NCBI RefSeq assembly: GCF_056712565.1 | Contig: NZ_CM160072.1 | Strand: one strand, 5' to 3' | DNA: 64,000 bases | Shown here: positions 1 through 35,271 of the stretch, one piece after another | Numbering within the stretch: the first letter of the stretch is position 1 | Layout of the letters: each line of letters begins with the position of its first letter | Notes under the pieces: generated by a model | Seen by the model: the letters and a program-made list of their open reading frames with translations, nothing else | What the model was told of the DNA's origin: nothing | Databases searched by the model: none | Program-made: the position numbers and the translations under genes

Positions 1-978
1 AACCGGGGCTTTGAAGCGGACCAGCTTGATCTGGAGCTGGACGACGCTGACGGAAAAATCGTGCTGCCGCGCCGTGGTGCGGTCATTACGCTGGCGCTGG
101 GCTGGAAGGGGCAGCCGCTTTTCCCGAAAGGGGCATTCACGGTGGACGAGATTGAACACACTGGCGCACCGGACCGCCTGACTATCCGGGCGCGAAGTGC
201 TGATTTTCGGGAAACCCTGAATACCCGCCGTGAAAAATCGTGGCATAACACCACCATCGGGGAAGTGGTTAAGGAAATAGCCGCGCGTCACAAGCTGAAG
301 ATGGCACTGGGTAAAGACCTGTCGGATAAGCCCGTGGAGCATATAGACCAGACTAATGAGAGTGACGGCAGTTTTCTGATGCGGCTGGCGCGACAGTACG
401 GTGCCATCGCGTCGGTGAAAAATGGCAATCTGTTATTCATCCGGCAGGGGCAGGGCAAAAGCGCCACTGGTAAACCACTGCCAGTGATCACTATCACACG
501 CAAGGACGGCGACAGTCACCGCTTTACCCTGGCAGATCGCGGAGCCTACACGGGCGTCATTGCCAGCTGGTTGCATACCCGCGAACCTGCGAAGAAAGAA
601 AGCACCACGGTGAAGCGTAAGCGCAGAACTAAGAAGCAGAAGAAAGAGCCGGAAGTGAAGCAGGGTGATTACCTGGTGGGTACGGATGAAAACGTGCTGG
701 TACTCAATCGCACCTATGCCAATCGGAGTAACGCCGAACGGGCAGCGAAAATGCAGTGGGAACGCCTGCAACGTGGCGTTGCGTCATTCTCGCTACAACT
801 GGCGGAAGGGCGGGCAGATCTCTACACGGAAATGCCTGTGAAGGTCAGTGGTTTTAAACAGCCGATAGATGATGCGGAATGGACCATTACGACTCTGACA
901 CATACCGTCAGCCCGGATAACGGTTTTACGACCAGTCTGGAGCTTGAAGTGAGGATTGATGATTTCGAAATGGAATGA
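1..978 (+). CDS. Phage late control/tail protein D (gpD family), 5'-partial
   Basis: Reading frame is open from base 1 with no upstream stop; the 305 aa shown end ...LELEVRIDDFEME and resemble the P2 D protein family. Confidence 0.8.
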   Translation, partial: NRGFEADQLDLELDDADGKIVLPRRGAVITLALGWKGQPLFPKGAFTVDEIEHTGAPDRLTIRARSADFRETLNTRREKSWHNTTIGEVVKEIAARHKLKMALGKDLSDKPVEHIDQTNESDGSFLMRLARQYGAIASVKNGNLLFIRQGQGKSATGKPLPVITITRKDGDSHRFTLADRGAYTGVIASWLHTREPAKKESTTVKRKRRTKKQKKEPEVKQGDYLVGTDENVLVLNRTYANRSNAERAAKMQWERLQRGVASFSLQLAEGRADLYTEMPVKVSGFKQPIDDAEWTITTLTHTVSPDNGFTTSLELEVRIDDFEME

Positions 979-1068
979 TTCTTCGCAATGGAGAACTTTT
1001 AAGTTTGCAAAATGGAATAATACGGTATCATTGTTGTGAATTTAGCAAAAATGGGGAGAACTCGAAAA

Positions 1069-1287
1069 ATGATGATTTGCCCACTGTGTGGAAGTGCCGC
1101 CCATACTCGCAGCAGTTTTCAGGTATCTTCATTGACCAAAGAGCGTTATAACCAGTGCCAGAACATTAACTGCAGCCATACTTTTGTTACCCATGAAACT
1201 TTTGTTCGTTCGATTGCAACACCAAAAGAGTCTAATCCAGTTCAGCCGCATCCAATGAAATCAGGACAGGTGGCGCTCTCTCTTTGA
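1069..1287 (+). CDS. ogr: Ogr-like phage late-gene transcription activator (zinc finger)
   Basis: MMICPLCGSAAHTRSS...CQNINCSH carries the C-X2-C...C-X4-C motif and resembles P2 Ogr; start chosen at the internal ATG by homology rather than the upstream GTG at 1036. Confidence 0.8.
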   Translation: MMICPLCGSAAHTRSSFQVSSLTKERYNQCQNINCSHTFVTHETFVRSIATPKESNPVQPHPMKSGQVALSL

Positions 1288-1367
1288 CGCTGCCGCCATT
1301 TTGTCGCCATCGTTAAAAAACAGTGCTTCTAACATCATGATTTTAAACATCTTAAATTTCAGGCAAC

Positions 1368-1446
1368 AAAAAACCCATCAACCTTGAACCGAAATGGCGG
1401 GGTTGATGGGCTCCACAAAATGGGGACATCAAAGAAAAGCAGTGGC
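1368..1446 (-). ncRNA. rybB: RybB small RNA (sigma-E dependent)
   Basis: Reverse complement reads GCCACTGCTTTTCTTTGATGTCCCCATTTTGTGGAGCCCATCAACCCCGCCATTTCGGTTCAAGGTTGATGGGTTTTTT, matching RybB as recalled, with a terminal hairpin and U-run. Confidence 0.85.
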
Positions 1447-1452
1447 ACTAAT

Positions 1453-1489
1453 TAAGACTGATGCCCTGCGGAAAAGTTCTGCGGTTGTG
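1453..1489 (-). promoter_or_regulatory. Putative sigma-E promoter of rybB
   Basis: On the minus strand GAACTT (-35 like) and GTCTTA (-10 like) lie just upstream of the RybB 5' end. Confidence 0.5.
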
Positions 1490-1522
1490 CAAAAAAATTT
1501 CATTTTCAGGGCAACTTCAGTT

Positions 1523-3208
1523 TTATCCTAATCCTGGCCATACCATGACGATGATTGTCCCTGCCAGCGTCAGCAGGACGTTGGCGATTGCATAGGTGCC
1601 CGCATAGCCCAGCGCCGGGATGTTACTGCGAGCTGTATCACTGATGATCTCCATTGCCGGCGCGCAGGTGCGTGCGCCCATCATTGCGCCGAACAACAGT
1701 GCGCGGTTCATTCGCAATACATAAGCACCGAACAAGAAACAGATAACCACTGGCACAAGACTGACAATCAATCCGGCAATCAACATCTGACCGCCAATCG
1801 CGCCTAGGCCGTTATTAATACCGCTACCGGCGCTCAGACCAACGCCTGCCATAAACACCATTAAGCCGAACTCTTTCACCATGCTTAATGCACCCTGCGG
1901 AATGTAACCGAAGGTCGGGTGGTTAGCGCGCATAAATCCCAGCATAATTCCGGCGAATAACAACCCGGCAGCGTTCCCCATGCCGAAACTGAATGTGCTG
2001 AACTGGAAGGTGATCATCCCGATCATCAGCCCAATAACAAAGAAGGCGCAGAATGCCAGCAAGTCAGTGACCTGGCTGTGAATCGAGATAAAGCCGATGC
2101 GATCGGCGATGGTTTTTACGCGACGGGCATCGCCGCTGACTTGTAAAACGTCACCTTTGTTAAGCACGACGTTGTCATCTATCGGCATCTCAATCTGGCT
2201 ACGAATGACGCGGTTAAGGAAGCAACCGTGATCGGTCAACTTCAGTTGTGCGAGACGTTTGCCCACGGCGTTATGGTTTTTAACGACCACTTCTTCAGTG
2301 ACGATACGCATGTCGAGAAGGTCACGATCGAAAACTTCTTTGCCGTTACGGAAGCTGGGATCGAGTCGTGCGTGGGCGTCGGGATAGCCTACCAACGCTA
2401 TTTCATCGCCCATTTGTAGCACAGCATCACCGTCTGGATTCGCCAGAATCCCGTTACGTCGAATACGTTCAATGTAGCAGCCAGTTTGTCGATAAATACC
2501 CAGTTCACGCAGATTTTTGCCGTCGGTCCAGGCCACCAGCTCCGGGCCGACGCGGTAGGCGCGGATCACCGGTAAATAAACCTTACGGTTGGCATCAGTG
2601 TCCAGGCCACGTTCGCGGGCGATTTGCTGGGCGCTGGTCTGTAAGTCCTGATGCTGCAATTTCGGCAAGTAACGCGCACCAACAATCAAACTCACCAGAC
2701 CGATTAAATAGGTTAAGGCATACCCGAGGCTCAGATTATCCAGTGCCAGTGAGAGCTGCCTGCTTTCCATGCCGGAATGACGCAGTGTATCGCCAGCACC
2801 GACCAGAACCGGTGTCGACGTCATAGAGCCAGCTAACATACCGGCCGTCAGGCCAATATCCCAGCCAAACAGCTTACCTAACCCTAAGGCGATCACCAGC
2901 GCACTGCCAACCATCACCAGTGCTAACATTAGGTAATTTTTCCCATCGCGAAAAAAAATGGAAAAAAAGTTCGGTCCGGCTTCGACCCCGACGCAGAAAA
3001 TAAACAGCATAAAGCCAAGATTAAGCGCGTCGGTGTTAATGCTGAAATGTTGTTGGCCTAATAACAGCGATACGACTAAAACGCCAATGGAATTACCCAG
3101 TTGGATCGAACCAAGTCGTAATTTCCCGAGACATAGCCCAAGCGCGAGGACCACAAATAATAACAGAATGTAATTCCCATTTAACAATTCGGCGACGTTT
3201 ATATTCAC
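1523..3208 (-). CDS. ybjL: Putative AAE-family transporter YbjL
   Basis: 561 aa ORF with TM-rich ends and central TrkA-C-like domains; matches YbjL. Confidence 0.95.
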
Positions 3209-33328: not shown

Positions 33329-35271
33329 CACCCTTGCTCGAATTAAAGGATATTCGTCGCAGCTATCCTGCCGGTGATGAGCAGGTTGAGGTGCTGAAGG
33401 GCATCAGCCTCGATATTTATGCTGGTGAGATGGTGGCGATTGTCGGCGCTTCGGGTTCCGGTAAATCGACCCTGATGAATATTCTCGGCTGCCTGGATAA
33501 GGCCACCAGCGGCACCTATCGCGTAGCCGGTCAGGATGTTGCCACGCTGGACGCCGATGCGCTGGCGCAACTGCGCCGCGAGCATTTCGGCTTTATTTTC
33601 CAGCGTTACCATTTGCTTTCGCATTTAACCGCCGAGCAGAACGTTGAAGTACCCGCCGTCTATGCCGGTCTTGAGCGGAAACAGCGGCTGCTTCGCGCCC
33701 AGGAGTTACTGCAACGACTGGGGCTGGAAGACCGTACAGAGTATTACCCGGCACAGCTTTCGGGTGGCCAGCAACAGCGCGTCAGCATCGCGCGGGCATT
33801 GATGAACGGCGGTCAGGTAATTCTTGCCGATGAACCGACCGGCGCACTGGACAGCCATTCTGGCGAAGAGGTGATGGCGATCCTGCATCAGCTGCGCGAT
33901 CGCGGGCATACGGTGATTATCGTCACCCACGATCCGCAGGTTGCTGCTCAGGCCGAGCGGGTGATCGAAATTCGCGACGGCGAAATTGTGCGCAATCCTC
34001 CCGCCGTTGAAAAAGTGAATGCTACTGGCGGAACGGAACCTGTTGTCAACACGGCGTCTGGCTGGCGGCAGTTTGTCAGCGGTTTTAACGAGGCGCTGAC
34101 GATGGCATGGCGGGCGCTGGCAGCGAATAAAATGCGTACTTTACTGACCATGCTGGGGATTATTATCGGTATTGCGTCGGTGGTTTCCATTGTCGTGGTG
34201 GGCGACGCCGCTAAACAAATGGTGCTGGCGGATATTCGTTCTATTGGTACGAATACTATTGATGTCTATCCCGGGAAAGATTTTGGCGATGACGATCCGC
34301 AATATCAGCAGGCGCTGAAGTACGACGACTTAATCGCCATCCAAAAACAACCGTGGGTTGCCTCTGCCACGCCCGCCGTCTCGCAAAACCTGCGCCTGCG
34401 TTATAACAATGTTGATGTGGCTGCCAGTGCCAATGGCGTGAGCGGCGATTATTTTAATGTCTATGGCATGACCTTCAGTGAAGGGAACACCTTTAATCAG
34501 GAGCAGCTGAACGGTCGTGCGCAGGTCGTGGTTCTCGACAGTAATACTCGCCGCCAGCTTTTCCCCCATAAAGCAGATGTGGTTGGCGAGGTGATTCTGG
34601 TCGGCAATATGCCCGCCAGAGTCATTGGTGTGGCGGAAGAAAAACAGTCGATGTTTGGTAGCAGTAAAGTGCTGCGTGTCTGGCTGCCATACAGCACGAT
34701 GTCCGGGCGAGTTATGGGGCAGTCGTGGCTGAACTCCATTACTGTCAGGGTGAAAGAAGGCTTTGACAGCGCTGAGGCGGAACAGCAACTCACGCGTTTA
34801 CTTTCACTGCGCCACGGTAAGAAGGATTTCTTTACCTGGAACATGGATGGCGTCTTGAAAACCGTTGAAAAGACCACACGTACTTTACAACTGTTTCTGA
34901 CGCTGGTGGCGGTGATTTCGCTGGTGGTGGGCGGTATTGGTGTAATGAATATTATGCTGGTGTCAGTGACCGAGCGGACGCGGGAAATTGGCATTCGCAT
35001 GGCTGTAGGTGCGCGAGCAAGCGATGTTTTGCAACAGTTTTTGATCGAAGCCGTACTGGTTTGCCTGGTTGGTGGCGCGTTGGGAATAACACTGTCACTG
35101 TTAATTGCTTTCACCTTGCAGCTTTTCTTACCCGGCTGGGAGATTGGTTTTTCACCGTTAGCGCTGCTGCTGGCGTTTCTCTGCTCGACGGTCACCGGGA
35201 TTTTATTTGGCTGGTTACCCGCACGAAATGCGGCACGACTGGATCCAGTAGATGCTCTGGCACGAGAGTAA
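33325..35271 (+). CDS. macB: Macrolide export ABC transporter ATPase/permease MacB
   Basis: 648 aa; N-terminal ABC domain (GASGSGKST) fused to FtsX-like permease. Confidence 0.95.

Follow-up and report, generated by a model that had tools for sequence, protein, structure and literature searches.

The first 1,378 positions of the window are, with a probability of about 95%, the right end of a complete temperate phage of the Peduoviridae, about 34.5 kb in length, integrated at the 14-bp core that it shares with the small RNA gene rybB. The window is the whole stretch of DNA that was analysed and comprises 64,000 nucleotides of contig NZ_CM160072.1 (RefSeq assembly GCF_056712565.1). It stops inside the phage gene D, and the other end of the prophage, with attL and the integrase gene, is known from public genomes that match the window at 100% identity. 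The mapping of the crossover from natural lysogens is the most precise result of the analysis. The features of the junction are the following:

1 to 978, plus strand: gpD-like tail gene (late control D), C-terminal 325 codons, truncated by the start of the window (phrog_52)
1004 to 1031, plus strand: sigma-70-like promoter match TTTGCA-16-TATCAT, 5' of ogr, a weak consensus match only
1069 to 1287, plus strand: ogr/Delta-type zinc-finger activator of late genes, 72 aa, final gene of the right arm (phrog_603, NF007241, PGAP WP_000972391.1)
1288 to 1352, no strand: P arm of attR, the phage DNA that separates ogr from the core; joined to int without a break in Klebsiella phage KP12
1353 to 1378, no strand: attR copy of the 26-bp direct repeat TAAATTTCAGGCAACAAAAAACCCAT common to attL and attR, the longest string shared by the prophage ends
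1365 to 1378, no strand: 14-bp common core AACAAAAAACCCAT, the last 14 nt of RybB, assigned as the segment of strand exchange
1365 to 1443, minus strand: rybB, intact gene of a sigmaE-dependent, Hfq-binding sRNA (Rfam RF00110)
1444 to 1522, minus strand: promoter region of rybB and spacer to ybjL, unaltered chromosomal DNA (0 mismatches to K-12)
1523 to 3208, minus strand: ybjL, 561 aa, aspartate:alanine antiporter family, the neighbour that fixes the locus (ORF; PGAP and K-12 annotation)

The phage part of the window has the two genes that lie beside att at the right end of P2-family phages, gpD and the Ogr/Delta zinc-finger activator. The D fragment (1-978) matched phrog_52, 'tail protein', with an E value of 6e-159; in the genomes identical to the window the full-length gene has 1101 bp and is labelled 'phage late control D family protein' by PGAP. 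The ogr product matched phrog_603 (E 1.5e-28) and NF007241 (98.5 bits, positions 1-70 of 72). The scan that gave the sigma-70-like match found 1 site where 1.4 were expected in shuffled sequences, which by itself is not significant. A preliminary description of this DNA had the right arm ending about 80 bp from the 3' end of rybB; the ogr stop (1287) and the RybB 3' end (1365) lie 77 bp apart, and the identities given there to D, ogr and RybB hold. This layout is not a matter of chance, because window 1-1700 (D-ogr-rybB-ybjL) is contiguous, at a coverage of at least 80%, in 926 of the 5426 complete E. coli genomes.

The chromosomal part begins with rybB, which was recovered against Rfam RF00110 over its full length (1-79 of 79) with 105.3 bits, the gathering score being 40. 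Its position relative to ybjL is conserved and its promoter region unchanged: from 1365 to 1669, that is rybB, promoter region, spacer and the end of ybjL, there are 0 mismatches to K-12. By identity to the K-12 gene, the RybB of the window should be expressed under sigmaE, bind Hfq and repress omp mRNAs. In the K-12 annotation rcdA, rybB and ybjL follow one another directly and phage genes are absent, as the preliminary description had stated. The gene is missing from the RefSeq tables of the lysogen genomes although it is intact in them.

The complete prophage is seen in public genomes. Window 1-1700 is 100% identical in at least 10 complete E. coli genomes, including SF-468, MS15052, APEC O1:K1:H7 strains, AH21G053 and AH19D088. 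The last two are also 100% identical over window 30001-55000, with colinear coordinates; MS15052 has a marginally lower bit score over that region and is identical to the window across all 3593 overlapping bases. Between rcdA and rybB both MS15052 and AH21G053 carry an intact P2-family prophage of about 34.5 kb. The left part follows rcdA with int and CI on the minus strand, a Cox-like gene, CII, Fil and more early genes. The middle part comprises a Dam methylase, the replication endonuclease (A), portal Q, terminase P, scaffold O, capsid N, M, L and lysis genes. The right part comprises baseplate V, W, J and I, an invertible fibre segment with a serine invertase, sheath, tube, E, tape measure T, U, D and ogr. 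The P2-type gene order is complete in the annotation of the two genomes, upstream of what corresponds to the window, and a tyrosine integrase lies beside rcdA at the far end, where the preliminary description had proposed to look for one.

In the window itself there is just the final 1.3 kb of phage DNA, and K-12 has a P2 remnant (ogr-D') at another sRNA locus, cyaR, the 'cyaR RNA' being listed as a further att site of the P2 family at an sRNA gene (PMC3032704, Table 2). D and ogr could from this be read as an isolated and decayed remnant, beside rybB by chance and devoid of integrase and attL. This reading has next to no probability: it is refuted in those public genomes that match the window exactly, where the whole 34.5-kb prophage is found with an essentially intact gene set and the 26-bp repeat lies exactly at both of its ends. 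Of the 5426 complete E. coli genomes, moreover, 959 have the attL junction (rcdA, core, int) and 926 (about 17%) an attR junction with D/ogr of the window type, so that a prophage of this type occupies rybB in roughly one complete E. coli genome out of six.

The two copies of the repeat TAAATTTCAGGCAACAAAAAACCCAT were found at both prophage ends in MS15052, 34,552 bp apart, and the same string is present at attL of AH21G053. The attL copy begins 5 bp past the rcdA stop and is followed by int after 75 bp. A direct repeat shared with region 1288-1400, anticipated in the preliminary description, is thus at hand as 26 bp at window positions 1353-1378. It covers the last 14 nt of rybB, which bears out the proposed integration into the 3' end of an sRNA gene with attR overlapping the RybB terminator. 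The core, read on the RNA strand as AUGGGUUUUUUGUU, corresponds to RybB nt 66-79 and takes in the U tract and, before it, the final 5 nt of the terminator stem on its descending arm.

The site is present and empty in K-12, where it reads TAAGTTTTAGATAACAAAAAACCCAT and has in common with the 26-bp repeat the right-hand 14 bp only. The exact 26-bp string was not found in the K-12 locus, because the host alleles vary in the 12 bp beyond rybB while the site itself is there. An attB was reconstructed from the left flank of attL, the 26 bp and the right flank of attR (226 bp), and it is uninterrupted in 4227 of the 5426 genomes. Some of these empty sites are 100% identical to the reconstruction, and the 26-bp version is therefore a native host allele. 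The repeat is single-copy in the empty sites (K-12, O157, B2 and other strains). The alleles identified in the 12 bp past rybB are the following:

K-12: TAAGTTTTAGAT
2013C-3252 empty site, retained at attL of the ATCC 8739 lysogen: TAAATTTTAGAT
APEC O78: TAAATTTTAGGC
O157 and B2, the same as the phage allele: TAAATTTCAGGC

The crossover was located by aligning five empty sites, three attL, one attR and one attP. The core AACAAAAAACCCAT is the only stretch of the junction that is the same in attL, attR, attP and 4 of the 5 empty sites compared; the exception is APEC O78, with C for the final T of the core, which reduces the invariant part to AACAAAAAACCCA. In the ATCC 8739 lysogen the host allele stands left of the core at attL and the phage allele at attR; likewise, in the record of vB_EcoM-813R9 the host flank at attL still has the host allele on the left side of the core. 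With the host allele at attL and the phage allele at attR, strand exchange is placed between 1364 and 1379, inside AACAAAAAACCCAT. Judging from these junctions the crossover must lie within the 14-bp core at 1365-1378.

The phage tyrosine integrase would recombine attP with the chromosome inside these 14 bp. The attP bears the same 14 bp as the rybB 3' end, with the identity extending to 26 bp in the host lineage of the window. Integration would swap the 3' end of rybB for an identical copy borne by the phage, leaving rybB intact at attR, and the displaced copy of the 3' end at attL would pair with adjacent phage DNA and give a hairpin and U tract after int. This is the classical route of integration into the 3' ends of genes for small structured RNAs, as at tRNA genes: a tyrosine recombinase adjoins the site, a direct repeat is present, the gene is rebuilt and a contiguous attP is found.

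The predicted attP, with the right end joined to the left end, is contiguous from OGR to integrase over 726 of 726 bases in the record of Klebsiella phage KP12 (OM835953), a phage from sewage that is 97.7% identical in this stretch and is a relative of the E. coli prophage, not the prophage itself. GenBank annotates the attR of Klebsiella phage 4LV2017 as CAGGCAACAAAAAACCCAT, followed by the Klebsiella rybB. The integrase has the Pfam domains Int_N (PF24624, E 1e-31) and Phage_integrase (PF00589) and also belongs to phrog_1; the Cox-like excisionase/repressor of the switch region belongs to phrog_575. Against 50,697 phage records, the integrase gave 15 matches at 99% identity or more (E. coli and Klebsiella) and 4 at 80-90%, the rest being below 60%. 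So tight a group fits a dedicated rybB specificity common to both genera, a specificity that would cross genera because the RybB terminator is conserved.

A repeat search of the reconstructed attP identified GCTGCCGCCAyTTTGTCGCCA once per arm. The P-arm copy is the 21-bp motif GCTGCCGCCATTTTGTCGCCA at 1289-1309, and the copy in the P' arm, with one mismatch, lies inside the 3' end of int. A second repeat, AAAACAATAAGTTAG, has two copies in the P' arm. Both are candidate accessory or arm-type sites for protein binding. The search for arm-type Int sites gave repeats only, which do not allow a binding protein to be assigned. On the int strand of attP and attL, the core and the adjoining phage DNA are predicted to fold into a hairpin of 9 bp, after which comes UUUUUUGUU. 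This hairpin, just downstream of int, probably terminates int transcription, and it appears to resemble the 3' half of the RybB terminator; folding of all 96 nt of the stretch gives it a stability not significantly above that of shuffles (z -0.42).

A prophage may be structurally complete and still be immobile, a domesticated or cryptic element fixed in its lineage and retained for its defence cargo. The identical prophage and junctions in many ST95-like isolates are compatible with such vertical inheritance, and candidate defence genes are aboard, a PDC-M35A/B pair and an AriA/OLD-like ATPase. Several observations nevertheless make this unlikely. The sole annotated pseudogene in the 34.5 kb is a fragment of 112 bp (33701-33812 of the MS15052 locus). 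The tail-fibre segment is inverted between the near-identical strains MS15052 and AH21G053, and because its orientation differs between them the phage invertase is active. The same int/att module occurs beside differing host alleles, in different phylogroups and in Klebsiella (99.4% Int identity), which requires recent mobility, and a close relative, KP12, was recovered with a contiguous attP. We infer that the prophage is still active. The window also has type I-F CRISPR spacers; the prophage as their target was rejected, the best match among them being 23 of 32, which is the chance level.

The preliminary description had also suggested that integration could affect the termination or the 3' end of RybB, and this part is not borne out by the sequence. 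Throughout 1365-1669, which takes in rybB with its terminator and promoter region, there is no base difference from K-12, and the gene is rebuilt exactly because attP carries the same bases. The 12 bp that follow it in the lineage of the window are the native allele of the O157 and B2 empty sites, and phage DNA takes the place of host sequence only beyond the first 12 bp past the RybB 3' end. A change in RybB biology might all the same be supposed, with the phage P arm or the convergent ogr altering termination, 3'-end length or Hfq binding, or creating antisense transcription: the DNA beyond those 12 bp is phage-derived, ogr converges with rybB, and no terminator-like site was found on the plus strand between them. 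The consensus scan for terminators gave no hit at all in 900-1700; even the genuine RybB terminator escaped it, having a loop larger than the scan allows, and terminators were for this reason judged by folding. The terminator hairpin of RybB is predicted to fold in the same way in the lysogen and in K-12, and its U tract is likewise unchanged. The ogr-type late activators of P2 and 186 phages are not known to be expressed in stable lysogens. An arrangement present in about one sixth of E. coli genomes also speaks against a cost. A changed RybB biology is on this evidence extremely improbable, and an effect of integration on read-through is unlikely.

The variation at attB allows a further reading, to which we give little credence. 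The alleles may set a lineage-specific efficiency of integration or be footprints of exchange between phage and host; separately, the phage context might subtly alter RybB read-through. As to the alleles, the reading takes its basis from their number (four), from the identity of the B2/O157 allele to that of attP and from the T-to-C change in the core of APEC O78.

The prophage is P2-like in the broad sense of the Peduoviridae and not a P2 sensu stricto (Peduovirus). The term 'P2-like' of the preliminary description is sound for the family, although the element is more precisely of the 186/Fels-2 type than of the P2 type. As in P2, the gene order ends with D and ogr beside attP, and P2 has likewise a tyrosine integrase with arm and core sites. 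P2 differs in its att sites (locI/locH) and in its C-type repressor, where the prophage encodes CI, CII, Fil and a Cox/Apl-like protein of the 186/Fels-2 type, and the integrases of the two are 39% identical. The closest sequenced relatives are the Klebsiella phages of the 4LV2017 type (genus Elveevirus), to which the D/ogr end is about 97% identical. Hochhauser et al. place the prophages of the rybB site in Felsduovirus (PMC10121019).

The prophages Rybb*W, Rybb*B and Rybb*Cr, of E. coli W, B and Crooks/ATCC 8739 (PMC3032704), share with the prophage of the window the locus (rcdA-prophage-rybB-ybjL), the int/att module and the phage type. The D-ogr-rybB junction of the ATCC 8739 prophage (Rybb*Cr) matches the window at 98.1% identity, with the 14-bp core unchanged, whereas the host attB allele differs, so that the identity of attL and attR, 26 bp in the lineage of the window, is broken there at three positions left of the core. 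Cargo also differs: Rybb*B has retron Ec86 (PMC3032704), whereas the prophage of the window has the PDC-M35 pair and the AriA/OLD-like ATPase. In the Klebsiella group, formed by 4LV2017 (KY271398), the Kp48xx phages, KP12 and Kpn38RybB, the integrase is 99.4% identical, the core is the same and the target is again the 3' end of rybB. Differences are the host genus, a slightly changed allele beside the core (AGAC or GGC) and one loop substitution in the Klebsiella rybB.

Integration into the 3' ends of RNA genes is known from other elements: 186 in tRNA-Ile, the ssrA elements, and those at Salmonella ryeB and E. coli ryeE (Williams 2002, as cited in PMC3603311). In these tRNA-, tmRNA- and sRNA-site elements an attP copy of the RNA 3' end likewise rebuilds the gene, and the target includes one arm of a hairpin. 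The prophage of the window is unlike the tRNA-site elements in that it targets not a tRNA stem but the Rho-independent terminator of an sRNA that binds Hfq, and in that int is placed at the other junction, away from the intact RNA gene.

The 3' end of rybB is already known as an integration hotspot of the P2 family in E. coli and Klebsiella. Archer et al. (2011), in the genome of E. coli W, give the 'rybB ncRNA' as the insertion site of the P2-like Rybb*W, Rybb*B and Rybb*Cr (PMC3032704), and Nilsson et al. (2011) included the ATCC 8739 prophage in a survey of P2-like att sites (PMC3448106). Hudson et al. (2014) describe the Klebsiella island Kpn38RybB as lying 'precisely within the gene for RybB' (PMC4048246). 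Hochhauser et al. (2023) list a hotspot within rybB, #29, which corresponds to the site of the Rybb* prophages and is filled in 109 genomes (PMC10121019); the main text of Bobay et al. (2013), which they cite for rybB, does not name the gene.

With the site published and the mechanism a textbook one, the finding has little weight as a discovery. Its value is for annotation: the 14-bp core fixes the exact boundaries of the prophage and shows that rybB is intact in lysogens. The conservation of the RybB terminator in both E. coli and Klebsiella explains how one int/att module circulates between the two. Finally, the prophages of the rybB site carry variable anti-phage cargo, and the site is therefore a useful landmark for surveys of defence islands.

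The ~34.5-kb P2-family prophages between rcdA and rybB in MS15052 (locus L001) and AH21G053 (locus L006) are near-identical apart from the orientation of the segment comprising the tail-fibre and fibre-assembly genes, which is inverted between them (L001 30932-34406; L006 26720-30194) and adjoined by a serine invertase gene. Because the orientation of this segment is opposite in two prophages otherwise so alike, the comparison indicates that a Gin/Cin-type host-range switch is active in the rybB prophage.

Candidate anti-phage cargo was identified at two variable spots of this prophage, in the part outside the window, where the related prophage of ATCC 8739 carries other genes at both positions:

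L001 16387-17477, candidate anti-phage PDC-M35A/B pair (S1 peptidase-like protein, E 4.5e-94; partner, E 4.3e-58)
L001 26381-28339, candidate anti-phage AriA/OLD-like AAA ATPase, 652 aa (E 1e-21)

In the window itself, a region annotated with clpA, macB and cydCD includes a CRISPR-Cas locus of type I-F that has two arrays, and a match to the enterobacterial sRNA STnc130 lies further on:

38731-38998 and 48119-48507, CRISPR arrays of 5 and 7 repeats, respectively (repeat GTTCACTGCCGTACAGGCAGCTTAGAAA)
39225-47013, cas genes of the type I-F locus
47689-47776, minus strand, tRNA-Ser GGA
63182-63316, minus strand, STnc130 (Rfam RF02084, 142.5 bits, full-length match)

Few complete E. coli genomes (134 of 5426) contain >=80% of positions 30001-55000. 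No type I-F spacer of the window matched the rybB prophage, the best reaching 23/32.

The 12 bp directly downstream of rybB (window 1353-1364) comprise four alleles among five empty sites and two attL junctions of E. coli, equivalent positions being compared in loci L002, L004 (ATCC 8739) and L008-L011. The O157/B2 host allele is identical to that of the phage. One of the five empty sites, APEC O78, presents a T-to-C change in the last base of the 14-bp core, so that a G-U pair takes the place of an A-U pair in the RybB terminator.

Although rybB is intact (window 1365-1443), the RefSeq/PGAP feature tables of lysogens L001 and L006 have no entry for it in the interval from ogr to ybjL; the K-12 annotation includes it. 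Annotation-based surveys would therefore miss the location of the prophage inside an sRNA gene.
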